IMG/VR virus record: IMGVR_UViG_3300012956_000013
DNA: 12,555 bases
Strand: one strand, 5' to 3'
DNA from: a virus
Lineage: Duplodnaviria > Heunggongvirae > Uroviricota > Caudoviricetes > Crassvirales
The notes beneath the pieces are model-generated. The model did no database searches, was not told where the DNA came from, and worked only from the letters and a program-made list of their open reading frames with translations. Positions within the stretch are counted from its first letter, which is position 1. Every line of letters starts with the position of its first letter. The translations under genes and the position numbers were made by a program. Below are positions 1 to 12,555 of this stretch, piece by piece.

Positions 1-1876
1 CTGGTTCAGCTATAGAAGCATCTGTACCACTTGTTCCACTCGTTCCATTTCCTGATGTACCAGAAGTTCCACTAACTCCCGATGTCCCATTTACCCCAGA
101 AGTCCCTGATATTCCACTTGTCCCACTTGCTCCACTCGTACCTGAAGTACCTGTCGCACCTGAAGTACCACTGGTTCCATTTGCACCAGATGTTCCGCTA
201 GTTCCATTTACTCCACTCGTCCCATCAATACCTGACGTTCCACTAACACCGCTAGTTCCTGAGTTTCCACTAGTTCCACTGCTACCGCTGACACCAGCTG
301 TACCAGACACCCCACTTGTACCATTTACGCCTGAGGTTCCGTTTATACCTGAAGTTCCATTTACCCCATCTATACCGCTAGTCCCAGAGGTACCTGTTGT
401 TCCAGATGTACCATTTATGCCGCTTGTACCATTTATTCCCGAAGTACCCGACACTCCACTAGTTCCAGATGTACCGCTATTTCCACTCGTACCTGATGTA
501 CCATTTGAACCTGATGTTCCAGACGTACCGTTACTTCCATTTACACCAGATGTTCCATTAGAACCGTCTACTCCTGATGTTCCTGATAAACCTGAAGTGC
601 CAGATGTACCATTAGAGCCATTGATACCTGATGTCCCTGATACACCACTTGTTCCACTGTTACCAGAAGTTCCTGATGTTCCACTAGCCCCTGACGTTCC
701 ACTAGTTCCATTTGCTCCATTAATACCACTTGTTCCAGAAATACCTGATGTGCCAGAACTACCAGATATACCAGAAGTTCCTGAAATACCAGAGGTTCCA
801 CTTACTCCTGATGTTCCGCTATTTCCAGCCGTTCCACTAGTTCCTGATACTCCACTAGTACCGTTTAAACCACTAGTTCCAGAGGTTCCGTTAGCTCCGG
901 GGGCACCACCTATATTTATCTGCCAAGAACAATAATTTCCTGAACCTACGTGACTTGTAGAATCAACTATTAATACTCCTGTTCCCGGATTATAGGATAC
1001 AACGGTTCCTGTAAAGTAGTTACTTATATTATAGGCTACTACAATATCCTGACCTGTAGTATATGCTAATCCAGTATCTACAGTAAATGTTATCTGTGTT
1101 GGGTGTGTTGTCGGTATATCTTCACAATCTGAGGAAGAGGTTTCATAAAAGTCTCCGTCTAAACCAGATGTACCAGATGCACCACTCGTACCACTAGTAC
1201 CATTACTTGAAGTGCCTGATGTGCCACTTACTCCTGAAGTACCAGTTAATCCACTAGTACCAGACGTACCAGTATTTCCTGATGTTCCGTCCACTCCTGA
1301 GGTACCGTTTGCTCCATTAATACCTGAGGTTCCTGTTAATCCACTTGAACCTGATGTACCATTCTGGCCACTTGTTCCGGAACTTCCAGAGGTTCCTGAT
1401 ATTCCTGATGTTCCTGACGCTCCACTACTTCCTGTAGTACCACTAGTGCCAGAAGTACCACTTGTTCCAGACTCTCCTGAAGTTCCTATAGAACCATTTA
1501 TTCCACTTGTTCCACTAGTTCCTGATGTTCCACTATCTATACTACCACTAGTTCCACTAGTACCAGACTGCCCTGATGTACCTGATGTTCCAAATCCAGA
1601 TGTACCAGATGAACCAGAAGCACCAGATGAGCCAGTTGCTCCTGACGTACCCGAAGTACCTGATAAACCATTCCTTCCAGATGTGCCAGATGTTCCAGAT
1701 TCTCCTTCTGCTTGTGAACCTACCTTTTCACATATCTTATTTAATATGGAAGATAAAGATTCACCCTTTATAGCAGGTACACACAAATCTGAGCAATCAT
1801 CATTAATAACTCCGGATAGAGGTACTTTTGACTTGCTAACAAGAATATACTTTTTTTGGTCGTTTGTTTCAGGCAT
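1..1876 (-). CDS. Gly-X-Y (GTS-repeat) collagen-like or PPII fibre protein, 3'-truncated (at least 625 aa), likely virion fibre/adhesin
   Basis: Manual translation from ATG at 1876 (upstream in-frame TAG at 1909..1907) gives MPETNDQKKYILVSKSKVPLSGVINDDCSDLCVPAIKGESLSSILNKICEKVGSQAE, then a GTS repeat, an 82-aa globular domain, a second GTS repeat and DASIAEP. There is no stop before base 1, which is presumably why the ORF track omits it. Confidence 0.93.
   Translation of the reverse strand, partial: MPETNDQKKYILVSKSKVPLSGVINDDCSDLCVPAIKGESLSSILNKICEKVGSQAEGESGTSGTSGRNGLSGTSGTSGATGSSGASGSSGTSGFGTSGTSGQSGTSGTSGSIDSGTSGTSGTSGINGSIGTSGESGTSGTSGTSGTTGSSGASGTSGISGTSGSSGTSGQNGTSGSSGLTGTSGINGANGTSGVDGTSGNTGTSGTSGLTGTSGVSGTSGTSSNGTSGTSGASGTSGLDGDFYETSSSDCEDIPTTHPTQITFTVDTGLAYTTGQDIVVAYNISNYFTGTVVSYNPGTGVLIVDSTSHVGSGNYCSWQINIGGAPGANGTSGTSGLNGTSGVSGTSGTAGNSGTSGVSGTSGISGTSGISGSSGTSGISGTSGINGANGTSGTSGASGTSGTSGNSGTSGVSGTSGINGSNGTSGTSGLSGTSGVDGSNGTSGVNGSNGTSGTSGSNGTSGTSGNSGTSGTSGVSGTSGINGTSGINGTSGTTGTSGTSGIDGVNGTSGINGTSGVNGTSGVSGTAGVSGSSGTSGNSGTSGVSGTSGIDGTSGVNGTSGTSGANGTSGTSGATGTSGTSGASGTSGISGTSGVNGTSGVSGTSGTSGNGTSGTSGTDASIAEP
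20..907 (-). repeat. Coding tripeptide repeat block 2, (G-X-Y)n, mostly GTS/GVS/GIN
   Basis: Gly codons fall every 9 nt from 907 to 52 (95 uninterrupted triplets), followed by G-N-GTS-GTS-GTD. Confidence 0.95.
908..1153 (-). other. 82-aa beta-rich globular domain between the two repeat blocks
   Basis: Translation DFYETSSSDCEDIPTTHPTQITFTVDTGLAYTTGQDIVVAYNISNYFTGTVVSYNPGTGVLIVDSTSHVGSGNYCSWQINIG shows alternating hydrophobic residues and Gly turns typical of beta strands. Confidence 0.8.
1154..1705 (-). repeat. Coding tripeptide repeat block 1, (G-X-Y)n with three register breaks
   Basis: 184 codons from GES to GLD-G. Breaks occur at G-F-G (about 1597..1589), G-S-I-D-S-G (1546..1529) and G-T-S-S-N-G (1216..1199). 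Confidence 0.95.
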
Positions 1877-1997: not shown

Positions 1998-2237
1998 CTA
2001 ATCGGAAAGTAGCTCAGAATCAATATCTTCAATCAATTTCTCTATCTCAGGAAGGTCTTCGACCTCAAGTTTTCCCGGATGTAATCTCTGGGAAAATGGG
2101 TCATCTACGAAAGAACCTAAATCATCTGCTATGCAAGATTGATAGAATTCATCTACATCTTTCTCATCTAGCTGAAAGAAATAATCGTAGGTTGATACAT
2201 AAATAACCTTTCCGGTTGGTAATGAAATATTTGGCAT
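1998..2237 (-). CDS. Small acidic hypothetical phage protein (79 aa)
   Basis: ATG overlaps the upstream TAA (TAATG) and the ORF ends at TAG. The N-terminal LPTGKVIYVS followed by a later PFS motif resembles small conserved proteins I recall from crAss-like phages. Composition is 20 D/E versus 5 K/R. Confidence 0.85.
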   Translation of the reverse strand: MPNISLPTGKVIYVSTYDYFFQLDEKDVDEFYQSCIADDLGSFVDDPFSQRLHPGKLEVEDLPEIEKLIEDIDSELLSD

Positions 2238-5200
2238 TATAATCCTCTTTTATCTGTTACTTTAACGCCCCAATCGTTCCCTAATTCAGAATCAAAAGTT
2301 GGCATATAATTAATAATTTCTTTTAAGACAGGTAATATTTTAAAAAAGTACTTCATAGGTTTTGCCCTCTCTCTTATTTCTTCTCCTCTCTCTTCAAATC
2401 CTAATCCTTCCATCCCTAATCCAAATGTTTCCCTTCCAAGATTTAATGTAAGATTTTTAAAGTCATTGACATACATCATCAGTGGAAATGGATTCTTTGC
2501 AATATCAACAATAGAGGTTGGGTTAAAGAAGAAACCTATCTCGTCTGACATCTTATCTATCTGTCTTCTTATTAGGGCTTTTGCTGATTTTTCCTCTGCA
2601 TCATCATCGTCATCACCTTTCATTAGTCCCGCTAATATAAATAATGTAAGGGCTCCAAACCATCTAACTTCTTCCAATGAATTTTCATATCCTATCATAA
2701 ATGCCTCTACAAATTCATTCTCTGATAAAAATTCTTCTTTTCTACCAAGTTTTTCAGCTACTTCTTTTTTTCTTTGGTATACTTCTATTGCTCTCTTAAT
2801 TAAATCTTCTCTTCCAAAATTTTTCAAAAGTTTTCCTGTAAGAAAGGGAATAGGGACTAATTTAGCCATAGAAGATAGTGTGTTAGCTGTAAAGCCTCTA
2901 TAAAGCATTCTAAATCTTCCATATACATAAGAGTTATGAGATTGAGAGTAGTGCATTTCTGCCCATCTTACATCTCCCATTCTAGGTATCCAGTTTTTAA
3001 ATGTACCAGCCAGTCTTCCCATAATCTGCATTCTATATGTTTGAATATCAAACTCATCAGCAGAACCAGTAGCATCTTTAGATATAGTTTGTACTTGTGC
3101 ACGAAAATTAATAACCTGCTGAGATTGGCGTTCTATTCCCGGAAGAGAGATAATAGTTTCCTCTTTGCCATTTATTTTCTCTTTTTTAAATTCTGCTATC
3201 TTCGTTATGGCATACTTTTCTTTCAGTTCTTTAAGTCTATTATCAAACTTTATATCTAGTTCTTTTCTTTCTTCTGAAGATTTCTGCCAATAATCCTCAG
3301 GTATAACTTCTGTTTTTGCTAAATCTCTTAAGTTAGTTATGTTTCCATCTATAATACCTGTATTCTCTATAAATGCAAAGAATATATTTAACTGAACTAC
3401 TTCGTCACCCTTTCTTTGTAAAGCCATTAGCCAATCCTGTGAGAGAATTCTGGAAGCTTGTCCTACAGATAATTGCTGAGACTTAAAGTTCTCTCTATTG
3501 TTAAGTAACGGAAGAAAATAGTCAACTAATGCTGCCTGTTTCTTCATTTCGTCTGATTGATAAAAAGCAACCGATGTCATTTTTGTCCAAGCAGTCATTA
3601 AATCTTCCTTCGAGAATTTAGAAGAATGAAGTTTATCTGCAGAGAAAGATGAACCAAATAAGTTACTCATTGCAGAAGATATATTAAGACCTAATGTCTT
3701 AAGTGTATTCATATTATTCAACCACAATGCAAACTTACTTATAGATATCCCACCTTTGTCATCATCAGTTATCTCAAATTTATACTTGTCATTAATTGGT
3801 AGTTTGTTCCATGCCTTTTTAAGTGAAAATTTTATAGTATAATCACTATCCATTTGGAGACTTTCTCCCAGTACATGATATCTAAAATATTTATCAAATA
3901 AATCTGCATTTAATCCTCTTACATCAGATTCAACTGGTCTATCTCCTAAGAATTTTACATTTCCGTACTTATCTGTCTCGTAATTTTTCTTTACATTTTT
4001 TTCAAAATACCTCAGTCCTTTGAATATATCATCTGTTTTTTGTAGGTATTTCTCCTTAGCAATTTCTTTTGACATTAATCCATATATAGTGAATATATCA
4101 AATGACATATTTCTCTTGCTAATCACTTTTTGTGCAAATAACTTATCCTGCTCTTTACTTTCCTCTCTAAAGTTTTTTACAAGTTCCCATTTTTTATCTT
4201 CTGGGGTTATATTGAAATTTGGAACAATTTCAGAGGCTACTTCTCTTCTTATATGATATAACTCATCTACATTATCTGTATATGCTATAAATCTTTTTTC
4301 CTCTTTTTTTCCAGTTTCAGGGTCTATTTTTCCTTGGAAATTTAGCTGGTAATCATTTACAGATATTTTTCTTTTCCAGTTTCTATAAGTTTGAAGAGCA
4401 AGATTTGACACCTTATTTAAGGTATTCGTATCTTTAACTGAAAAAATATCTGATGCACCTTTGAGTACATTAGGTACAAACGTATACATTTGGTATTCTT
4501 GGATAGCTCCTACATCTACTAGTTCTTTGTTCTTTTTTACAAAGAAGTTGTATATCTCCGTTAGAATAGGAGATTCTTTAATTGTTTTAAATTCTTCTGA
4601 TTCCCATAGTTCCTCCTTAAGATTTCTAGACCAAACGTACTTATTAAATGGGTGAAATGCAGTTTTTGGATGCTTTAAGATATTATATTCTTTCTCAAAC
4701 TTTGCTCTTTTTAATTTTTTAATTCTATTGTTTTCTGCAGCATCGTCAGATACTTGACTATTATCCCATACTTTAACATTTTCTTTCAGTTCTTTATCGT
4801 ACCACTCTTTCCATTTATCAATATCATAATTTACCTTTACAAATTCCAGAATCTTCTTTGAATCACCACTATCTTGAACTTCTTTTCTTTTCTCATAGAA
4901 TTCCTTATTTATTTTGGAATGAAGTTTTCCGGTTTCTCTATTTACAAGAAAGTCTATTGCTTTTTGATAAGATACTCCCTTTTCTTTTGCAAAAGACTCA
5001 AATTTGTATTTAAGACTTTGTAGATTCTTTAGTTCGTTATCTGTTTCAATGTCAATCTTACCATAAGCATTCTTTACCAACTCATACATTAACCGTATAG
5101 ACGCAATATCGTGGTCACCCATTGCTCTAAGATGAACAGATAACCCCCTAACTACTTTTTCGGGAGATGGTAAATTATATACTCCATTATTTCTTGCAGA

Positions 5201-8182
5201 AATGTCTAATAATTTGACCAATTGACCATCAAGAATTAACATTCGGTTTGATAGCTTATTAAAAATTTCATTTAATTTACCAATATATTTAGATTCAACC
5301 GTTTTATCTGATGTGATTAGGTCTCTAATTTCCGAAATAGCTTTAAACACACCTATATAAATATTAATATCACCAACCATTGCGTTAATTACATCAATAT
5401 CTTCTGACTTATTTACCTCAATTTCCTCACTTAATTTTTTAACTCTTGAAAATAAATCATTAACATATGAAATTACGTATCTTAAATCCTTACCTAAATG
5501 TAAATCAAATATAGCATCATCTATCTCAGAAAGAATAAGTCTATCATTTAATTTACCCTCCTTCAACATTTTGATAAACGTATTTCGTACACCTTTCAAC
5601 TTAATCTTAAGATTATCTCTTATCTCGCTACCGGATTTCTCCTGCTGAGAAATATAAGGTCTAAGAGAGGTCTTCTCTTCTTTTATCGGGTCTACATTTC
5701 CAGCTATTATTTTAGTTAAAACATCCTTTTTGTAAAGCCTACGAATAGGAATTGCTCTTAATTTATTAAATTCCTTTACATTATAATCTTTAGCCAGAAC
5801 ATCTCGATATTGAGATAATTGAATCTCCCACTGATTCTTTTTATAGTCTCTCTCTTCTGATTCATCTTGAACAGTCTTCCAGTCTAAAATACTTAATTTT
5901 CCAGAGGGTTCTATAGCAATAAAGTCAACAGTTCCAATTACACTCTTTTTAATATCTGTATTATCTGAGTATACAATTTGTTCTGATAAAAATCTTGTAC
6001 CAACAGGAAAAGTAGCAAACATTTGCCTCATATATACTTTTACTTGTCTTGCTAGTGCCTGTTCTATAGGAGTTGGATATAGTATATCAGTTAGAGGTCC
6101 TTCTGAATCTCTAAGCAAACCTGTTTCTCCGTCTACCATTGAATTAAATACGTCCTCAAACACAGAGTGTACATATTGACCATCCTTTGCTAATGAGTCA
6201 TAATACTTACGCTTTTCCGGGTCAGATGGTCTATTTCTGAATAGTTTTTCTTTATATTCATTACTTTTATCTGTAACCCTAGGACCTTCCCATAATTTTC
6301 CATCTTTATAGTACTTATTATCTATTTTGGTAAATCCTAAGCTAGCAGCTTTATCTTTAATAGATAGAAATGTAGTTTTTGTTGCAGAAAATTCTGCGTC
6401 TCTTTCATCTATACTCTTTGACGATTTAGAAAAGAATAAACCGTCAGATTCTGAATCATAATTAGTACTATCTAAATCAGAGAATACGCCAAATGCTTCG
6501 TTGTTTTCATTAAGTCTATCTAAAGCCTCCTTAAATGGATTTTTGTAATTAGTAAATGTCTTTCTTATCCAATCTTTTATTGCAGACCACCAAGTATTTA
6601 CTTTCTTTACTTTATCTAGAGATTCAATCTTATTTTCAGTATCAGATATTAAGTACTCTACAAGGAGCTTAGCAATAGCTTCCTTTTTAATTTTACTATA
6701 ATCTAATTTCCCGTCTTTTTGATAATTTGGGTCAGTTGCATATGAAGAGTTTACTAAATCTCTATATAGCTGATAATCAATTACTTCTTTCTCAAGTTTT
6801 CTGAAAAGGTTAGTATCTGCTTGCTCTATCAACTCCACAAGTATATGCATAGCTTCTTCTGGTAGAGTTACATCTTCCTTACCCTCCACAATTTGCATAA
6901 CACCGTTAATCATATCTACATATGCATCATCTTCGATTTCTTCACCATTATGAAAAAGTTTTTTAACTATTTCAATATTTGTAAATCCTATATTTTTTAG
7001 GAAATTCAATACTTTTTGCTTTGTTATTTCTCCAGCTTTTGTAGATTGTAGATTAGATACATCTTTGCTTTCAAAGATTCTAGGAAATGAACTACTAAAG
7101 TCACCAATCTGTACATAAATTGCACCTTCTGTTTCTCTAGTTCTAAGCCAAGTCCATCCATTCTTTTGAATCATTTCTTCCAAGATACGTTTCTTAGTAT
7201 AGTCCTTTTCCTTATCTGGAATATTTGTTCTGGATAACGAATTCCATACTGTAGCTTTAGGAATATAATACCAAGCTCGTTTCTTTCCACCAGCTCCGAA
7301 CTTTTGCACCTTCTTAGATATATATCCTGCATTTTGTAGTTTCTTGAAGATTACTTGTTGTTCAGGTGTAAGGTTATCCTTTGGAGCTTTGGAGAGATAG
7401 ATGTCTCCTTTCTTTTCAGAGTATTTTCCTTTATTAAATAAAGATTTAATATTACTATAAATCTTATTTTCTGGTTGAAAAATTGCGTAAGATATACTAC
7501 CTTTATCCTCTAATTTATTTTCATAATAGTAGCCATCTGCATTAAGTACCTTTTGTAAGGTTGTCTCACCTTTAAGTAGAGATATAGCATCTTCTCTTGT
7601 TATAATACCTGCATCATAGAATGAGATATAAAGATTTCTTCTTTCGTCTTCATTCTCAATCTGTTCGTTACTTTCGTTTCCAATATAATATAATTCCTCA
7701 TACTCCTCCTCTGATATATTCTGAAGACGACTTGATGATAGGTAATCTACTCCTTTTACTAAATTTTTAGCAAATAAGAATACAGGTAGTAATTTATATC
7801 CCTCTTCTTCTAAATCTCTTAGTGCATCTTCTTCACTTGTTCCAAAGTAATCAAGACCTCCGTCATACTTTCTTTCTATTGCTGCCTTCTTCGTTCCAAA
7901 GTGAAATCCTCCTACTACAGAATATTTCTCATCAAATTCATTAAAATCTATATCTGTACCATGCCACAAAAGAAGAGGTTCACCATCTTCTGTAGTTACT
8001 ACATTTGGTGACTTTTCAGTAGTCCAATCCCCTGACCTTGATATAAACGAAGGAGATAGCAGTTGCTCATATAACATGTCTGCCTCTTGGTCAGTATTTA
8101 CCTCTTTTCTTATATCATTCCAAGTCTTAGAAGTAACTTCTTTCCCAGTTCTTGGTGATTTTATTATTCTACATGATGCCAT
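2237..8182 (-). CDS. Giant virion cargo/ejection-type polyvalent protein (1981 aa): ART-like, EExxH peptidase-like, PD-(D/E)XK nuclease, helical and membrane-inserting C-terminal region
   Basis: 5.9-kb open frame. The start is moved from the track's TTG (8188) to the in-frame ATG at 8182, which overlaps the upstream TAA and has AAGGAG 7 nt upstream. Motifs: DGEPLLLWHGT/GFHFGT, LPEEAMH, GTVDF..LDWKT..QLSQY and WFGALTLFILAGLM-KG-DDDDD. Confidence 0.93.
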   Translation of the reverse strand: MASCRIIKSPRTGKEVTSKTWNDIRKEVNTDQEADMLYEQLLSPSFISRSGDWTTEKSPNVVTTEDGEPLLLWHGTDIDFNEFDEKYSVVGGFHFGTKKAAIERKYDGGLDYFGTSEEDALRDLEEEGYKLLPVFLFAKNLVKGVDYLSSSRLQNISEEEYEELYYIGNESNEQIENEDERRNLYISFYDAGIITREDAISLLKGETTLQKVLNADGYYYENKLEDKGSISYAIFQPENKIYSNIKSLFNKGKYSEKKGDIYLSKAPKDNLTPEQQVIFKKLQNAGYISKKVQKFGAGGKKRAWYYIPKATVWNSLSRTNIPDKEKDYTKKRILEEMIQKNGWTWLRTRETEGAIYVQIGDFSSSFPRIFESKDVSNLQSTKAGEITKQKVLNFLKNIGFTNIEIVKKLFHNGEEIEDDAYVDMINGVMQIVEGKEDVTLPEEAMHILVELIEQADTNLFRKLEKEVIDYQLYRDLVNSSYATDPNYQKDGKLDYSKIKKEAIAKLLVEYLISDTENKIESLDKVKKVNTWWSAIKDWIRKTFTNYKNPFKEALDRLNENNEAFGVFSDLDSTNYDSESDGLFFSKSSKSIDERDAEFSATKTTFLSIKDKAASLGFTKIDNKYYKDGKLWEGPRVTDKSNEYKEKLFRNRPSDPEKRKYYDSLAKDGQYVHSVFEDVFNSMVDGETGLLRDSEGPLTDILYPTPIEQALARQVKVYMRQMFATFPVGTRFLSEQIVYSDNTDIKKSVIGTVDFIAIEPSGKLSILDWKTVQDESEERDYKKNQWEIQLSQYRDVLAKDYNVKEFNKLRAIPIRRLYKKDVLTKIIAGNVDPIKEEKTSLRPYISQQEKSGSEIRDNLKIKLKGVRNTFIKMLKEGKLNDRLILSEIDDAIFDLHLGKDLRYVISYVNDLFSRVKKLSEEIEVNKSEDIDVINAMVGDINIYIGVFKAISEIRDLITSDKTVESKYIGKLNEIFNKLSNRMLILDGQLVKLLDISARNNGVYNLPSPEKVVRGLSVHLRAMGDHDIASIRLMYELVKNAYGKIDIETDNELKNLQSLKYKFESFAKEKGVSYQKAIDFLVNRETGKLHSKINKEFYEKRKEVQDSGDSKKILEFVKVNYDIDKWKEWYDKELKENVKVWDNSQVSDDAAENNRIKKLKRAKFEKEYNILKHPKTAFHPFNKYVWSRNLKEELWESEEFKTIKESPILTEIYNFFVKKNKELVDVGAIQEYQMYTFVPNVLKGASDIFSVKDTNTLNKVSNLALQTYRNWKRKISVNDYQLNFQGKIDPETGKKEEKRFIAYTDNVDELYHIRREVASEIVPNFNITPEDKKWELVKNFREESKEQDKLFAQKVISKRNMSFDIFTIYGLMSKEIAKEKYLQKTDDIFKGLRYFEKNVKKNYETDKYGNVKFLGDRPVESDVRGLNADLFDKYFRYHVLGESLQMDSDYTIKFSLKKAWNKLPINDKYKFEITDDDKGGISISKFALWLNNMNTLKTLGLNISSAMSNLFGSSFSADKLHSSKFSKEDLMTAWTKMTSVAFYQSDEMKKQAALVDYFLPLLNNRENFKSQQLSVGQASRILSQDWLMALQRKGDEVVQLNIFFAFIENTGIIDGNITNLRDLAKTEVIPEDYWQKSSEERKELDIKFDNRLKELKEKYAITKIAEFKKEKINGKEETIISLPGIERQSQQVINFRAQVQTISKDATGSADEFDIQTYRMQIMGRLAGTFKNWIPRMGDVRWAEMHYSQSHNSYVYGRFRMLYRGFTANTLSSMAKLVPIPFLTGKLLKNFGREDLIKRAIEVYQRKKEVAEKLGRKEEFLSENEFVEAFMIGYENSLEEVRWFGALTLFILAGLMKGDDDDDAEEKSAKALIRRQIDKMSDEIGFFFNPTSIVDIAKNPFPLMMYVNDFKNLTLNLGRETFGLGMEGLGFEERGEEIRERAKPMKYFFKILPVLKEIINYMPTFDSELGNDWGVKVTDKRGL
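2621..2662 (-). other. Hydrophobic, possibly membrane-inserting helix followed by a poly-Asp tract
   Basis: WFGALTLFILAGLM is followed by KGDDDDD. The uncharged core is only 14 aa, which is short for a full transmembrane span. Confidence 0.55.
5740..6330 (-). other. PD-(D/E)XK (RecB/lambda-exonuclease-like) nuclease domain
   Basis: The ordered motifs are GQYVHSVFE (H at 6169..6167), SEQIV, GTVDF (D at 5926..5924), LDWKT (5887..5873) and QLSQY. No Fe-S cysteines are present. Confidence 0.85.
6560..7030 (-). other. Zincin-like fold with EExxH in place of HExxH
   Basis: LPEEAMH (6865..6845), a distal KKEAIAKLL, and a trailing WWSAIKDWI helix parallel the LWQKFINAIFNLF helix that follows the intact zincin in the upstream protein. 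Confidence 0.6.
7450..8050 (-). other. ART-like domain 3 (ART-PolyVal type)
   Basis: Motifs in order: GDW, DGEPLLLWHGT..FNEF, GFHFGTKKAA, PVFL, and ADGYYYENKLEDKGSISYAIFQP. Confidence 0.8.
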
Positions 8183-11100
8183 TAGCAATCTCCTTTTTTA
8201 AATTGTAAATTATCTAATAATTTTTGACTGGATAACATACCATTGTTCTTTTCTGTCCAATTTTTAAACCCTTCTATATCTTGTTTACTACCTAATACGT
8301 GGATTTGTTCTGGTTCTTTTACTGCAATCCATTTTATTGCGGGAGTATTACTGATTGATTCTACACCTCTTTCTTTGGCACTTAATTGATTTATAATTAT
8401 TGAATCATTGTTAGCAAGATTATACTGTTTTAGATTACCATATTTACTATTCTCTAAACTATTACTTTCTATTGGATTATTACTATCAACTATAGCTGCA
8501 ATTTCATTTTTACTGTTCCCTCCTTCATCTAAATTGATACCAAATACAGTTTTATCTTTTGATGTTTTACTGAAATATATAGGTACTTCATAACCTAATT
8601 CTTTACTAAATCTCTTTTTAAATTTATCAAAAGTACTATCAGTTTGATGATAAACAATATCCTTTACTTTCGATTCATAATTATACTTACCACTTGAAGG
8701 ATTTTTAACAATACCTAAAGATACTCTTGCTATGTAATCTGTATAAGCATTTAACGCATCTTGTTTTTGTTCTAAAGGTGTTTGAATATTTTCATTAGGT
8801 ATAAATCTATTATAGTCCCAAATATCTTTGTATCTTGCAAAATCTAATTTAGCTTTAAAAACATCTTTCCAATTAGCAAGTTGAATTACAGTTCCTTCTT
8901 TAGATTTATAATTAAAGGGGTTATTTAGATTTTTATCAGAATAATTCTCATAACTAAAAAAATCTATAACTTTACCTTCTACACCAGTAACTATTTCTTC
9001 AGATTGATTATTACCTTCTTGTTTTTGGAGTCTGTATGTTCCTACAACATTCCCTTTTGAGTCTATGACATCATAAGAATTAATAATAATTTTACCGTTA
9101 AAATTATCTGCTTTATAATTTGATATAGAGTATCCTTCAGGAGTAATCAAATAACTGTCTGTTATGTATCCATCTCCATAAATATCTCTAACCTTAACAG
9201 CATTAGGGTAAGACTTTAAGAATTTTTCTTCTGTTTCTTTTCTACTAAAAGGGCTAACCCAATCTATATCGTGCAAAGGATTTTCATCAGGTCTTAATAT
9301 AACCCCTTGTTCTGATAATGCTGTACTTCCTGTAAGAATAAACCCTAGTTTAGAAAGCTTGTAAATGATACTTGCTCCAAATTTATCTTTTTTTAAAGCC
9401 TCTTCTATATTTACTTGTTGAGTAGGCTTACCAAAAGCTCCGGGTTTATATAAAGAAGCTGTGATTAATTTTTTATTTTGTTGTAAAACATTGTTACTAA
9501 TTATTCCAATGTTAGTGTTTATCGTATCTATAGGAACAGACATAAACAACTCAAGAAATTTATTAACGAGTTCTTTAATTTTGTCAATTAAAGATTGGTT
9601 ATAATTCCCTTTTATTTTATTCTGTAAATCTTGACTAACAAGTTCGCCAATTAATTTAAAATATTGAGACTTATCTAAATTTTTATATTTATCTGTTTTA
9701 CTAAGTTCTGTAATAATATCTGTTACTAAGGGATTATATTGCATCATATAAGCAATAAATTCTCCAGCTATAATCGGTAAATCTTTTTTATCTTTTATAT
9801 ATGCTATTTTAGATAATAAATCGGCAACCCCTATTTCATCTATTTCTAACTTATCTTTTATTTCATTAATATCTTTAACAGTTATTCCAAATTGATACAA
9901 ATAAGTTTCAAATATCTTAGAAGCGTCTTTTCCTGCTTTTTTTATTAATTCTGAGTTAATTTCAACAGGAGTATATTTTAAATTCTGAGATTGATTATAA
10001 TATTCAATTTCTTTACTTGTAACATCCTCATAACTTTTATTAAAAATTTTCTTAAAAACATTTGGGTTAGATGCTACTGCAAATTTATCCATCTCTTCCC
10101 CTTTAAAATTATAATTAAAAGAAGAAGTAGAGGCTGCATATCCGCTTCTTACCAGTTTATCCGCATAGTCTTTAGGAACAAAAGAAATAAAATCTAAACC
10201 ATTTTTCACAATATTAGGGATAGCTTCAGCAAGAAGTTCTTTACTTGAAGGAGAACTATTTATCCTTGTTATAAATGTTGCTGTATTAATATCATAATTT
10301 CCAAATATATAGGTGTCTTTATGCTTATATACCTGAAAAGTTTTTAAAAGAGATTCAAAAACATCATAAGAAATAGCTTTTCCTTCTCTTTTTCTATTTA
10401 TTAATGCTACATAATTATTATAAATAGTTCTTAGTTTCTCTTTTGTTATGTCTGGTTCTAATTCAAATATTGTAGAAGCAATTGTATTTTGCTTATTTTC
10501 AACCCCGGTAGCTTCGTAATAAACATTCTGTAATTCTTCACTACTTTCAAAAGCATTTTTAGCACCTTCAATAAACTCTTTATTGCTAAGTCTTTCTTGT
10601 AGTTCATCAAACTTTTTAACTTGTTCTTGTTGATTACCTTGAAGTACAGGATTAGTATTAGGTTTATTTAGTGATTGTTGAAATTGTTGGAAAGAGTTGT
10701 TTTCTTGAGATTTTTGAGATATAAAGTTTGCTAATCTAGTATTATCATTAATATTACTTACATTATAAAATTTAAAATTATTAATCTGTATTATACTATT
10801 TAATTTATCAAAAGTAGATATTTTATATGTTTCAGTTTTATATTTAGAGGTTTTATTAAATAAATTAAATATTGCATTTATAAATTTTTGCCATAAAGAT
10901 AAACTTGTTTCTTTTTCTTCTTCTATGCTTTCAAGTAACTGCTTAAATAAAGGATTTGAAAAAGCTTCTGATAAAAATTCATGTTCGTCTTTTAATCCAT
11001 ATATAGAATCTTTATTGTCTTTTTGATACTTTTTACCTGTTTTATTTTTTACTTCTTTTATCAACTCTTTTATCTCATTTTTAAATGAAATATCATAATT

Positions 11101-12555
11101 AATTGCTAGATGTGTAACACCATGAATTAATTCGTGTGCTAATAATTGAAAAGCTCCCTTATCTATGCGAAGATTTTCTTCATATATATAAATTGAATTG
11201 GTATTAGGTTGATACCAAGCAGCAACTCCTTCTTCTGAAAACTCTTTATTAGAAAATACAACTACCTTAATATTTTTAGCATTTTTAACTGCATCTTTGA
11301 TTAAAGGATTGTCTATAAGTTCTATTGCATATTTTAATATATCAGTAGAATCATCGTTATAAAATTCTTTAACAATTACAGGTTTTATGCCTTTTTCACT
11401 AGTTTCTCTCTTTTCTTTAATTATCTGCTTTACTTTAGCATCTAATACATTTTGTCTATTTTCTTCTGATATTTGTGATATTTTAGAAGTTAATTTATAA
11501 AAACCTTTGACAAATCTTTTTGGAAACTTGAAAGTTTTACCATCAGCAGTTTCAAAAACAAAAGTTTCAGATTTACTATTATTTAATTCTTTTTTAACTT
11601 GGTCAAATACAGATGAAGTAAACCCAAATGAAAATATTTTATCGAAATTTTCTTTAACGGAATTTTCTATAACTTCATTTTGTTTTTCTAGAATTTCATA
11701 AAAATTAGGATAAACTTTACTTTCTCCTATAAACATAATATGTTCAGGGTACACACCAGTTTGATTTAATACTTCAGATAAAGAAGGACTTCTATCTCTT
11801 GAAAATCCCCCAAAAAAAGCAAAATCTTTTTTACTTGTATCATATTGTACATTATCAAAAGTAATTTCATCTATACTTTTAACATTTGCTCCTGATGCTC
11901 TATTAAACAACATTAAAGCTAAATCATCATCTTTTAATGATGAGCTATTAAAATCTCCTTGTTTATTATCAGAAAATATTTGAATATTAGAATTTAATTT
12001 TTGATTATTTTTATTAAACTTATCAACCCAACTTTTAAACCTTTTTATATCTTGTTTACTACCTAATATATGAATTTGTTCTGGTTCAAATACCACGTAT
12101 TCACTCGCTTCAGGTTCATCTAATATATAAGCGTCATTAGTTGTAGGTTTATTCTTTATTTTACCAAATTCATTATAATCAAAATCTTCTGTATTTTTAA
12201 ATATTTTAGGATTAATTGTATTAATTAATACAGGTATATTTTCACCACCTTTTTTATTATAAGGTTTATTTATATCAACTCTTCTATATTGAGTTGCATA
12301 ATTAAAATCTTTTGTAAAATAAATACCTTTACCATAATTAAATGTACTATCGGTAAATTCTTGTATATCATTAGCTGTACCATGATAAACAATATCTTTT
12401 ACTTTAGATTCTGGAAAAATAGTATCAAGATATTGAGAGTATAGTTGTTGAGCTTGTTGTTTATAGTCTATGTTAAACTTCAAACTTTGTTCATCAGCGG
12501 TAGCTCTATTTACAACTCCTTCTTTTATTAAAGAATTCCATAATCTCCTTGCATC
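8182..12555 (-). CDS. Giant polyvalent virion cargo protein, 5'-truncated (at least 1457 aa)
   Basis: The frame stays open upstream of the track's TTG (12483) to the window edge, adding DARRLWNSLIKEGVVNRATADEQS, so the true start lies outside the window. It contains two ART-like modules, an HELIH zincin and a nucleotidyltransferase motif set, and ends KKGDC-TAA. Confidence 0.93.
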   Translation of the reverse strand, partial: DARRLWNSLIKEGVVNRATADEQSLKFNIDYKQQAQQLYSQYLDTIFPESKVKDIVYHGTANDIQEFTDSTFNYGKGIYFTKDFNYATQYRRVDINKPYNKKGGENIPVLINTINPKIFKNTEDFDYNEFGKIKNKPTTNDAYILDEPEASEYVVFEPEQIHILGSKQDIKRFKSWVDKFNKNNQKLNSNIQIFSDNKQGDFNSSSLKDDDLALMLFNRASGANVKSIDEITFDNVQYDTSKKDFAFFGGFSRDRSPSLSEVLNQTGVYPEHIMFIGESKVYPNFYEILEKQNEVIENSVKENFDKIFSFGFTSSVFDQVKKELNNSKSETFVFETADGKTFKFPKRFVKGFYKLTSKISQISEENRQNVLDAKVKQIIKEKRETSEKGIKPVIVKEFYNDDSTDILKYAIELIDNPLIKDAVKNAKNIKVVVFSNKEFSEEGVAAWYQPNTNSIYIYEENLRIDKGAFQLLAHELIHGVTHLAINYDISFKNEIKELIKEVKNKTGKKYQKDNKDSIYGLKDEHEFLSEAFSNPLFKQLLESIEEEKETSLSLWQKFINAIFNLFNKTSKYKTETYKISTFDKLNSIIQINNFKFYNVSNINDNTRLANFISQKSQENNSFQQFQQSLNKPNTNPVLQGNQQEQVKKFDELQERLSNKEFIEGAKNAFESSEELQNVYYEATGVENKQNTIASTIFELEPDITKEKLRTIYNNYVALINRKREGKAISYDVFESLLKTFQVYKHKDTYIFGNYDINTATFITRINSSPSSKELLAEAIPNIVKNGLDFISFVPKDYADKLVRSGYAASTSSFNYNFKGEEMDKFAVASNPNVFKKIFNKSYEDVTSKEIEYYNQSQNLKYTPVEINSELIKKAGKDASKIFETYLYQFGITVKDINEIKDKLEIDEIGVADLLSKIAYIKDKKDLPIIAGEFIAYMMQYNPLVTDIITELSKTDKYKNLDKSQYFKLIGELVSQDLQNKIKGNYNQSLIDKIKELVNKFLELFMSVPIDTINTNIGIISNNVLQQNKKLITASLYKPGAFGKPTQQVNIEEALKKDKFGASIIYKLSKLGFILTGSTALSEQGVILRPDENPLHDIDWVSPFSRKETEEKFLKSYPNAVKVRDIYGDGYITDSYLITPEGYSISNYKADNFNGKIIINSYDVIDSKGNVVGTYRLQKQEGNNQSEEIVTGVEGKVIDFFSYENYSDKNLNNPFNYKSKEGTVIQLANWKDVFKAKLDFARYKDIWDYNRFIPNENIQTPLEQKQDALNAYTDYIARVSLGIVKNPSSGKYNYESKVKDIVYHQTDSTFDKFKKRFSKELGYEVPIYFSKTSKDKTVFGINLDEGGNSKNEIAAIVDSNNPIESNSLENSKYGNLKQYNLANNDSIIINQLSAKERGVESISNTPAIKWIAVKEPEQIHVLGSKQDIEGFKNWTEKNNGMLSSQKLLDNLQFKKGDC
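8190..8195 (-). promoter_or_regulatory. Shine-Dalgarno-like AAGGAG upstream of the 1981-aa gene
   Basis: The minus strand reads AAGGAG-ATTGCTA-ATG (7-nt spacer). It also encodes KGD of the upstream protein, so it may be coincidental. Confidence 0.4.
8275..8316. repeat. Dispersed direct repeat A, copy 2 (partner 12046..12087)
   Basis: tatatcttgtttactacctaataCGtgGatttgttctggttc versus tatatcttgtttactacctaataTAtgAatttgttctggttc, 39/42 identical; encodes EPEQIH(I/V)LGSKQDI. Confidence 0.9.
8647..8676. repeat. Dispersed direct repeat B, copy 2 (partner 12382..12411)
   Basis: atgataaacaatatcCtttactttCgattc versus atgataaacaatatcTtttactttAgattc, 28/30 identical; encodes ESKVKDIVYH. Confidence 0.9.
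8810..9370 (-). other. Pol-beta superfamily nucleotidyltransferase domain, AbiEii/MenT-like motif set
   Basis: Motifs in order: FILTGSTAL (G-S at 9330..9325), R..HDIDW (9273..9259), strand KVIDFF, and C-terminal KAKLDFARYKDIWD (8856..8815). Confidence 0.75.
10850..11300 (-). other. Zincin metallopeptidase domain (polyvalent-protein MPTase type)
   Basis: Motifs in order: AAWYQPNTNSIYI, AHELIHGVT (HELIH at 11136..11122), and distal YGLKDEHEFLSEAFSNPLF. Confidence 0.88.
12046..12087. repeat. Dispersed direct repeat A, copy 1
   Basis: 39/42 identical to 8275..8316. Confidence 0.9.
12382..12411. repeat. Dispersed direct repeat B, copy 1
   Basis: 28/30 identical to 8647..8676. Confidence 0.9.

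Follow-up and report, generated by a model that had tools for sequence, protein, structure and literature searches.

Two giant proteins encoded next to each other in the window, the 12,555-nucleotide stretch of crAss-like phage DNA analyzed here, had a single cysteine each in the residues visible, placed at the C-terminus of one and the N-terminus of the other, on either side of the gene junction. Facing terminal cysteines recurred in hundreds of relatives. On balance, we lean toward a reading in which the terminal cysteines link ejected cargo proteins head-to-tail by disulfide bonds, which would be reduced apart in the host.

The translation gave two cysteines in 3438 residues, one in the visible part of ORF A and one in ORF B, in agreement with the original prediction, which had placed them at the last residue of ORF A and at residue 4 of ORF B (Table 1). 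The one-base overlap of the two genes, also predicted, was found as a TAATG and suggests translational coupling. An alternative ORF B start in the ORF listing was a TTG at 8188, two codons 5′ of the ATG. The ATG is favored, because the homologues begin with M-A-S-C and an AGGAG is present. At ~0.9% cysteine, the probability of at most one cysteine is 3e-5 for ORF A and 3e-7 for ORF B. Given one cysteine each, the probability of finding one as the last residue and the other within the first five residues is ~2e-6. This value, together with the conservation in relatives, bears out the earlier statement that the placement is unlikely by chance. Conservation is the real test of the cysteine placement, and in the sequences compared it was passed. 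The ...KKGDC ending of ORF A was found also in L003 and L004.

Table 1 Features of the ORF A/ORF B region, in coordinates of the window.
Feature	Coordinates	Strand	Remarks
ORF A	coding 8185..12555, to 8182 with stop	minus	1457 aa visible, 5′ end beyond the window; 3′ part of a giant polyvalent cargo protein
ORF B	2237..8182	minus	1981 aa; proposed last protein of the chain, cysteine at the N-terminus only
ORF A sole cysteine	8185..8187	minus	TGC codon, final residue (...KKGDC-TAA)
ORF B sole cysteine	8171..8173	minus	TGT codon, residue 4 (MASC...); invariant in alignment A1
TAATG junction	8180..8184	minus	ORF A stop 8184..8182 and ORF B ATG 8182..8180, one shared base
AGGAG	8190..8194	minus	7 nt 5′ of the ORF B start codon; seen in the sequence itself
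ART-PolyVal, ORF A	12073..12393	minus	visible residues 55–161; 37 bits, over the Pfam cut-off of 31.2
Second ART-PolyVal-like domain, ORF A	8302..8658	minus	visible residues ~1300–1418; E 5.5e-4, 21 bits, under the cut-off
ART-PolyVal-like domain, ORF B	7469..7990	minus	residues 65–238; 28 bits, under the cut-off of 31.2
PD-(D/E)XK nuclease (PDDEXK_1), ORF B	5726..6187	minus	residues 666–819; 28–29.5 bits, over the cut-off of 22
N-terminal head module, ORF B	8018..8182	minus	~residues 1–55; 40% identity with phi14:2 gp66 residues 2–70

Among the ORF B homologues, with identities down to ~23%, a cysteine was found at residues 3–8 in 43/46, and 38 of the 46 had no further cysteine. The homologues of the gene upstream of an ORF B relative were 120 giants of 2300–5650 aa, 117 of them with a cysteine within the last six residues. 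Most (95/120) were of a first type, without N-terminal cysteine, and 22/120 were of a middle type, with cysteines at both ends. The start of the upstream gene was covered through these relatives, in which an N-terminal cysteine is missing from the protein that opens the block. Altogether, counted as sequences related to each other and not as independent events, 321 of the 332 relatives collected, all ≥1000 aa long, had a terminal cysteine and 11 did not. Internal cysteines made up 0.0385% across the 332 relatives, versus 1.12% in neighboring ORFs, of which 8/141 and 9/141 (about 6%) had a terminal cysteine. The giant muzzle proteins, which are not ejected, had 10–16 cysteines. The distance of the cysteine from the end varied (residues 3–10 and −1 to −6), and the flanking motifs were diverse. 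Terminal cysteines were co-conserved at every junction fetched and internal ones were rare in homologues, in line with the proposed exclusion of cysteine from the rest of the cargo. Judged by these comparisons, the terminal cysteine pattern is a family rule and not chance.

Facing cysteine pairs were present at the junctions in L001, L002, L003, L004, L007, L009, L010 and L011, as well as in cr108_1, crAss001, DAC15, crAss002 and phi14:2. In six of these (phi14:2, crAss001, DAC15, crAss002, cr108_1 and L002), the first protein had only a C-terminal cysteine, the middle protein had both, and the last had only an N-terminal one, the order that a linear chain predicts. For example, in phi14:2 the only cysteine of g067 was its last residue, g066 had only the cysteines 3 and −2, and g065 only cysteine 3. 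In crAss001, gp47 had only a cysteine at −3, gp50 had cysteines 5 and −9 plus one other, and gp49 only cysteine 5. Because gp47 is encoded on the strand opposite to gp50, the pattern cannot come from read-through or from the genes being neighbors. The genes at the L001 junction were separated by a gap of 36 nt.

The number of N-terminal cysteines equaled the number of C-terminal cysteines in all Crassvirales blocks seen whole. The exception was a more distant array, L019, with five proteins having an N-terminal and two having a C-terminal cysteine; two other proteins of this array had cysteines 67–69 residues from the end. L002 encoded an additional protein of 601 aa with exactly two cysteines, residue 5 and the last residue. 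This protein combined, as a mosaic, a head module of the B type with modules that are fused in other giants. Its reading as a split-off ORF A-like tail was dropped, since ORF A showed no similarity to it, nor to the L002 giant.

Where a chain end became internal, the cysteine was mostly gone. The residue aligned to the terminal cysteine was a cysteine at 132/134 and 123/134 terminal sites, and at 0/5 and 2/35 sites when the same position was fused or internal. Giants such as P0047 consisted of fused gp47-like and gp50-like parts, without cysteine at the fusion. Two cr108_1 ORFs without terminal cysteine were exons divided by a group I intron. By these alignments, the cysteine is a property of the chain end rather than of the domain.

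ORF B matched the cr108_1 protein QOR58988 (E 4e-19 for residues 412–1265 and 7e-10 for residues 1688–1965) and, weakly, crAss001 gp49 (E 3e-4). With this resemblance, the crAss-like assignment of the window holds, the phage family placement being drawn from the RNAP cargo block alone. ORF B had no phmmer match to PDB sequences and no match in PHROGs, and a search of viral contigs for loci related to the window gave no relative. Cys4 was placed in a coil, followed by a beta-hairpin and three short helices, by an AlphaFold2 model of ORF B residues 1–260; the model was poor (mean pLDDT 46, head module 58–73) and gives only a hint of this fold. Modules of ORF A were shuffled among hundreds of cysteine-poor giants, and the enzyme modules of the two proteins occurred at varied positions in 538 other proteins. 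Among complete relatives of ORF A, the closest was P0317, 86% identical in a part of its length and located in a different array, L019. The tail region of ORF A had no detectable similarity to the tails of other giants, though the cysteine was kept, and its second ART-PolyVal-like domain stopped ~40 residues short of the terminal cysteine. Within the visible 1457 residues, the 5′ part lying beyond the window, there was no homology to the RNAP-bearing giants. The GSDFDVDK catalytic motif was found in the upstream giants of relatives, e.g., in P0047 at residue 3393.

The window resembles the Crassvirales RNAP cargo block (g067-g066-g065 in phi14:2, with g066 as the virion RNAP, and gp47-gp50-gp49 in crAss001), ORF B being homologous to the last, gp49-type protein. 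Unlike the phi14:2 and crAss001 blocks, the version in the window is enlarged by three ART-like domains and a PD-(D/E)XK nuclease. The cargo-block proteins are packed in the virion and presumed to leave it by ejection (PMC10172136; bioRxiv 10.1101/2020.03.07.982082), their virion presence coming from MS of crAss001 and phi14:2 only (PMC10172136; NC_021806 annotation). In crAss001, the cargo must partly unfold at constrictions of <50 Å (PMC10172136). ORF A and ORF B are probably carried in the particle and injected as well.

For the head-to-tail reading, we infer the following course. As members of the giant RNA-polymerase-associated cargo block, ORF A and ORF B would be packed in the capsid and ejected ahead of or along with the DNA. 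The C-terminal tail of one cargo protein would dock onto the head module at the N-terminus of its successor, and the facing thiols would be joined as a disulfide between the two proteins after the virion has left the reducing cytoplasm. In this way, two to four gene products could become a single thread of ~5400–6500 residues (sums from three relatives, not from the window), which could pass the narrow tail N-terminus first, with its members in fixed order and equal numbers. In the host, the reducing conditions of the cytoplasm would sever the links, and the enzymes would be released. Having no cysteines elsewhere would prevent wrong cross-links that could jam the channel. The gut habitat of these phages is largely anoxic and reducing, and oxidation inside the capsid is for this reason not assured.

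Docking was favored weakly by a co-fold of ORF B residues 1–260 with the C-terminal 180 residues of ORF A. The two termini scored 0.34, versus 0.02 for the best control, and passed a mark reached by 51/78 solved complexes and 2/108 mismatched pairs. The pass was of the weak class; passing scores of ≤0.60 included only 5 of the 78 solved complexes and all 4 passing mismatches. Agreement between runs was ≥17% of contacts, with a partner pLDDT of ≥52. Neither of the two sequence patterns named in advance as speaking against the head-to-tail linkage first proposed for this junction, a lack of co-conservation and common internal cysteines in homologues, was observed, and the comparisons support that proposal.

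The same cysteine pairs would also hold a chain together if, instead of forming a disulfide, they bound Zn or Fe between them, with His, Asp or Glu residues close by as further ligands. Acidic or His residues often adjoin the cysteine (...KKGDC, ...DDFKC, ...IEPxC, MAHCININH), such a site could form in the reducing gut or cytoplasm too, and the comparative data do not separate metal from disulfide. However, each end has a single thiol with no conserved second ligand at fixed spacing, the residues next to the cysteine vary widely, and the cross-link type seen in crAss001 virions is the disulfide. We consider a metal bridge quite unlikely. Unlikely, too, is that the cysteines pair like-with-like (N-N, C-C), or that they anchor the cargo to the portal, the inner capsid or a gp45-type cargo, for packing or retention. 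Which thiol meets which is not readable from sequence, the crAss001 disulfides join different structural proteins, and L019 has unmatched N-terminal cysteines. Against such pairing or anchoring stand the matched N- and C-terminal counts in every Crassvirales block seen whole, the order of C-only, both and N-only proteins, and the loss of the cysteines exactly at fusion sites. In a like-with-like arrangement, the two-ended middle proteins would in addition polymerize.

The cysteines could serve another chemistry, with no link at all: lipidation, a catalytic nucleophile after N-terminal processing, protein ligation or splicing, or a redox sensor turning the enzymes on in the host. With mostly Ser or Ala at residue 2, removal of the Met is probable and would leave the cysteine 2–4 residues from a free amine, and some tails are CaaX-like (...CIAF, ...CAGL, ...CAVL). 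We consider these roles very unlikely, as they explain neither the matched counts nor the cysteine loss in fusions. A bacterial lipoprotein was rejected, the cysteine, at residues 3–6, being preceded directly by Met and small residues, and a signal peptide, hydrophobic leader or lipobox being absent. An intein or protein trans-splicing was rejected as well, the Pfam scans of the proteins having found no Hint or intein family at E values up to 1 and no sortase-type domain. The CaaX reading was discarded because bacterial hosts, to our knowledge, lack CaaX prenylation and no prenyltransferase domain was present in the proteins scanned. Many junctions are tightly coupled, e.g., by the TAATG in the window, and terminal cysteines might be a by-product of strong cysteine purging plus chance or nucleotide constraints at junctions (start/stop overlap, ribosome-binding signals). 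The intergenic gap in L001 and the opposite strands of crAss001 gp47 and gp50 argue against it, as does the retention of the cysteine while its offset varies, when only ~6% of the neighboring ORFs have a terminal one. From these comparisons, we regard the by-product reading as refuted.

Low cysteine content has a precedent in N4-like phages (Schitoviridae). Their giant ejected proteins, including the virion RNAP, are nearly cysteine-free, as in N4 gp50 and in DEV gp71, gp72 and gp73, and this suppression was attributed to transit through the oxidizing periplasm (PMC11445570). The ORF A/ORF B family is similar in having cysteine far under the level of neighboring ORFs. In contrast to the essentially cysteine-free N4-like proteins, crAss-like cargo keeps one cysteine per facing end, and total cysteine avoidance is therefore no explanation for it.

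In AB toxins, such as diphtheria toxin and the clostridial neurotoxins, one disulfide holds two chains, one of which crosses a membrane unfolded, and cytosolic reduction frees the enzyme. The chains come from nicking of one polypeptide, with the disulfide flanking the nick, whereas the crAss-like link would join the products of separate genes end to end, up to four in a row, within a virion. The polyvalent proteins that Iyer, Burroughs, Anand, de Souza and Aravind described in 2017 from phages and conjugative elements are reportedly giant arrays of shuffled enzyme domains, including ART-PolyVal, delivered with the DNA. ORF A and ORF B are likewise giants with shuffled, unrelated enzyme modules (ART-PolyVal in ORF A, PDDEXK_1 in ORF B). 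We know of no terminal cysteine rule for polyvalent proteins.

Virions of crAss001 contain inter-subunit disulfides in the tail hub-ring, between R1 and R2, and in the gp57 dimer (PMC10172136). These fix stable parts, while the proposed cargo bonds would join mobile proteins and must be undone in the host. A point against the proposed bond is that the crAss001 study, with MS of samples both reduced and not reduced, describes no such link (PMC10172136). Papers on the crAss001 and phi14:2 block deal with its proteins, the RNAP fold and possible polyprotein cleavage (PMC10172136; bioRxiv 10.1101/2020.03.07.982082). Our literature search found no description of a terminal cysteine rule or of an end-to-end cargo link; the original prediction likewise knew of no such system. 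That ejected proteins can be depleted of cysteine had been established with the N4-like phages, whereas terminal cysteine pairs appeared in none of the papers found.

In the human gut, crassviruses are the most abundant phages, and the finding bears on how their protein cargo of >600 kDa passes through a narrow tail. The disulfide may stand in for a peptide bond, the two being interchangeable in evolution, and give a pseudo-polyprotein of ~6000 residues with fixed-order ejection, disassembly by reducing systems of the host and redox-timed delivery, in crAss-like phages and perhaps more widely in phages with polyvalent cargo; we hold this broader view tentatively, at a little less than even chances. 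Genes could then split and fuse freely, their products being re-joined end to end in the virion. If true, a conserved end-to-end link would set the order and stoichiometry of ejection and would account for the RNAP block being one, two, three or four genes. It would make a simple and direct prediction, the cysteine pairs g067 C1797 with g066 C3 and g066 C2179 with g065 C3 in phi14:2, and gp47 C2339 with gp50 C5 and gp50 C2404 with gp49 C5 in crAss001. Giant, cysteine-free proteins with a terminal cysteine would then be a signature for ejected cargo in metagenomic phages.

All large genes of the window (G + C content 31%) lay on the minus strand. The TAA of ORF A, the upstream cargo gene whose 5′ end lies beyond the window, and the ATG of ORF B had one A in common, with an AGGAG 7 nt 5′ of this ATG. 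Translation of the window gave one Cys each in ORF A and ORF B, exactly where the original prediction had placed them when proposing that facing terminal cysteines bond head-to-tail and chain the ejected cargo proteins, with Cys excluded elsewhere. The 79-aa ORF had no family match; its start, MPNISLPTGK, was conserved in four fetched loci (L001–L004) and its Cys was not. Cys 28, 32 and 49 in the N-terminal part of the tail fibre recurred in L002 and L004 at almost identical positions.

Features of the window and of related cargo blocks (first, Cys at the C-terminus only; middle, at both ends; last, at the N-terminus only)
Genome	Feature	Coordinates	Strand	Length	Cysteines and other characteristics
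Window	ORF A	window edge to 8182	-	1457 residues visible	ends ...NLQFKKGDC, then TAA
Window	ORF B	2237..8182	-	1981 aa	starts M-A-S-C
Window	79-aa ORF	1998..2237	-	79 aa	one-base overlap with ORF B stop
Window	collagen-like tail fibre	2..1876	-	625 aa	5 Cys; Pfam Collagen, E 1e-63
phi14:2	g067, first			1797 aa	sole Cys is last residue
phi14:2	g066, middle, virion RNAP			2180 aa	only Cys: 3 and penultimate
phi14:2	g065, last			1421 aa	only Cys: 3
crAss001	gp47, first				only Cys: third from end
crAss001	gp50, middle				Cys 5, one internal, Cys ninth from end
crAss001	gp49, last				only Cys: 5
DAC15	61, first				only Cys: third from end
DAC15	63, middle				Cys 5 and last residue, 3 internal
DAC15	62, last				Cys 4, 1 internal
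crAss002	gp32, first (middle protein none)				only Cys: penultimate
crAss002	gp33, last	L017 9270-9370 (MN917146.1)			M-S-C-T-P-S-N-P from internal Met, 32 codons past annotated start
cr108_1	798-aa ORF, first (middle protein none)			798 aa	ends ...NLCK
cr108_1	last protein				starts M-A-N-V-C
cr108_1	group I intron	L014 40375-40693, about 58374-58692 of MT774385.1			Rfam RF00028, 80 bits, E 1e-20
L019	distant array	5101-23519			five polyvalent proteins

ORF B carried an ART-PolyVal-like domain (residues 65–238, below the Pfam cut-off) and a PD-(D/E)XK nuclease domain (residues 666–819, above it). Its core was similar to cr108_1 QOR58988 (1714 aa) and weakly similar to crAss001 gp49, which belongs to the virion proteins associated with RNA polymerase. 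The first 70 residues of ORF B were 40% identical to the phi14:2 gp66 N-terminus. Of the two ART-PolyVal domains of ORF A, one exceeded the cut-off; the other was weaker and lay ~40 residues from the end of the protein. Both modules ended with EQIH(I/V)LGSKQDI(E/K)(G/R)FK (window 8300–8330 and about 12070–12100, minus strand). In many relatives, too, this motif stood where a module ends, and it marks the boundary between modules. Modules of the last 1200 residues of ORF A were shared by 538 other proteins, at the beginning, middle or end, and such recurrence at varied positions is a hallmark of polyvalent proteins. In the relatives (contigs of 115–170 kb), the gene 5′ of the ORF-B homologue encoded a giant of 3469–4777 aa. 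In giants like the collected protein P0047, the N-terminal part was gp47/g067-like and was joined to a gp50/g066-like RNAP part carrying GSDFDVDK. Domain content, gp49-type homology and the RNAP-bearing giants of the relatives mark the locus, at the sequence level, as the probable RNAP cargo block of a crAss-like phage, to which effector-like modules have been added.

Among 46 ORF-B homologues (99% to about 23% identity, 1600–2600 residues), 43 had a Cys at residue 3–8, and 38 had no other Cys. In all nine other contexts (L001–L012) the preceding giant ended in Cys or had one among its last five residues, with 0–3 other Cys per roughly 2700–3330 visible residues. Three small genes separated the giant from the ORF-B homologue in L012. 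In L002 the intervening gene encoded a 601-aa protein with exactly two Cys, residue 5 and the last. Cys was found within the last six residues in 117 of 120 full-length giants, which included 95 of the first type, lacking an N-terminal Cys, and 22 of the middle type, starting M-S-C-V-N. Many first-type giants among P0050–P0131 had one extra Cys, at residue ~2900–3400, near the RNAP catalytic region. Two more independently drawn protein sets gave the same picture.

The original prediction called for a count of Cys positions across relatives, and this count agreed with its Cys pattern: in the pooled set of 332 collected proteins (≥1000 aa, Met start), which are relatives and not independent trials, terminal Cys was kept in 321 and internal Cys was rare (0.0385%). 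As background, Cys made up 1.12% of 141 ordinary ORFs from the same loci, occurring in the first ten residues of 8 and in the last eight of 9. Muzzle-type proteins, giant but non-ejected, keep 10–16 Cys, so size alone does not explain the depletion. Six proteins (P0249, P0274, P0277, P0280, P0281 and P0300) had C-termini resembling a CaaX box (...CIAF, ...CAGL, ...CAVL, ...CVAL), probably a coincidence in bacterial phages, though conserved within that subgroup.

In crAss001, gp47 lies on the strand opposite gp50 and gp49, and the Cys pattern therefore cannot arise merely from reading frames that lie next to each other. The annotated N-terminus of crAss002 gp33 lacked Cys, and the internal Met yielded the usual head motif; the true start probably lies 32 codons downstream of the annotated one. 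In cr108_1, the facing ends of a 2967-aa and the 798-aa ORF lacked Cys because a group I intron parts one protein: it splits the virion RNAP catalytic motif between GSD and FDIDK, and the exons are annotated as separate hypothetical proteins.

From each Cys-ended protein, the terminal 80 residues were aligned to the other proteins and the residue opposite the Cys was scored. Where the homologous site was terminal, it was Cys in 132/134 (N) and 123/134 (C) cases; where internal, in 0/5 (N) and 2/35 (C). The tail region of ORF A had no similarity to the tails of other giants, and the terminal Cys was kept nonetheless. The 601-aa protein of L002 consisted of a B-type head module and modules that other giants contain in fused form, without Cys, and fused first-plus-middle giants had no Cys at the fusion point. 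These comparisons indicate that Cys marks a chain end and not a domain, a split bringing a Cys pair and a fusion none.

The simplest reading is the one originally predicted, in which each cargo protein would contact, with its tail, the head of its successor, and the facing thiols would bond. Which thiol would meet which we infer from Cys counts and order. Inter-subunit disulfides are present in crAss001 virions, whose cargo includes gp47, gp49 and gp50 and must partly unfold at constrictions under 50 Å; for gp45, an N-to-C ejection direction was proposed (PMC10172136). The free N-terminus of the first member and the free C-terminus of the last fit N-to-C threading. Summed block lengths (5398 aa in phi14:2, 6102 aa in crAss001, 6447 aa in L001) were similar for two-gene and three-gene blocks. 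Cytoplasmic reduction would separate the split versions, matching the protease cleavage suggested for fused ones by Drobysheva et al.

Co-folding of ORF B residues 1–260 with the last 180 residues of ORF A, also proposed originally, lent weak support. The score was 0.34, the best control scored 0.02, contact agreement between runs was at least 17% and partner pLDDT was at least 52. Of 78 solved complexes, 51 reach the mark used, as do 2 of 108 mismatched pairs; scores of 0.60 or below, as here, comprise 5 of the 78 solved complexes and all 4 passing mismatches. A poor AlphaFold2 model, a hint only, placed Cys4 of ORF B in a coil that precedes a beta-hairpin.

In kind, a metal bridge joining the facing cysteines would agree just as well with the sequence data. 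The gut is a reducing habitat, which makes oxidation inside the capsid uncertain. The Cys counts of the distant L019 array do not match a simple chain rule: all five proteins had an N-terminal Cys and two also a C-terminal one. In two other L019 proteins, a “...KDC” or “...IDC” tail was extended by about 67 residues that end in ...YGLVI(S/P)K.

Cys suppression in ejected proteins is known from N4-like phages, where it was ascribed to transit through the oxidising periplasm (PMC11445570). Neither full-text searches nor the papers of most relevance yielded a description of terminal cysteines for crassvirus cargo. The cargo proteins and their Cys depletion are of known kinds, and the retained, matched terminal Cys pairs are a new feature.
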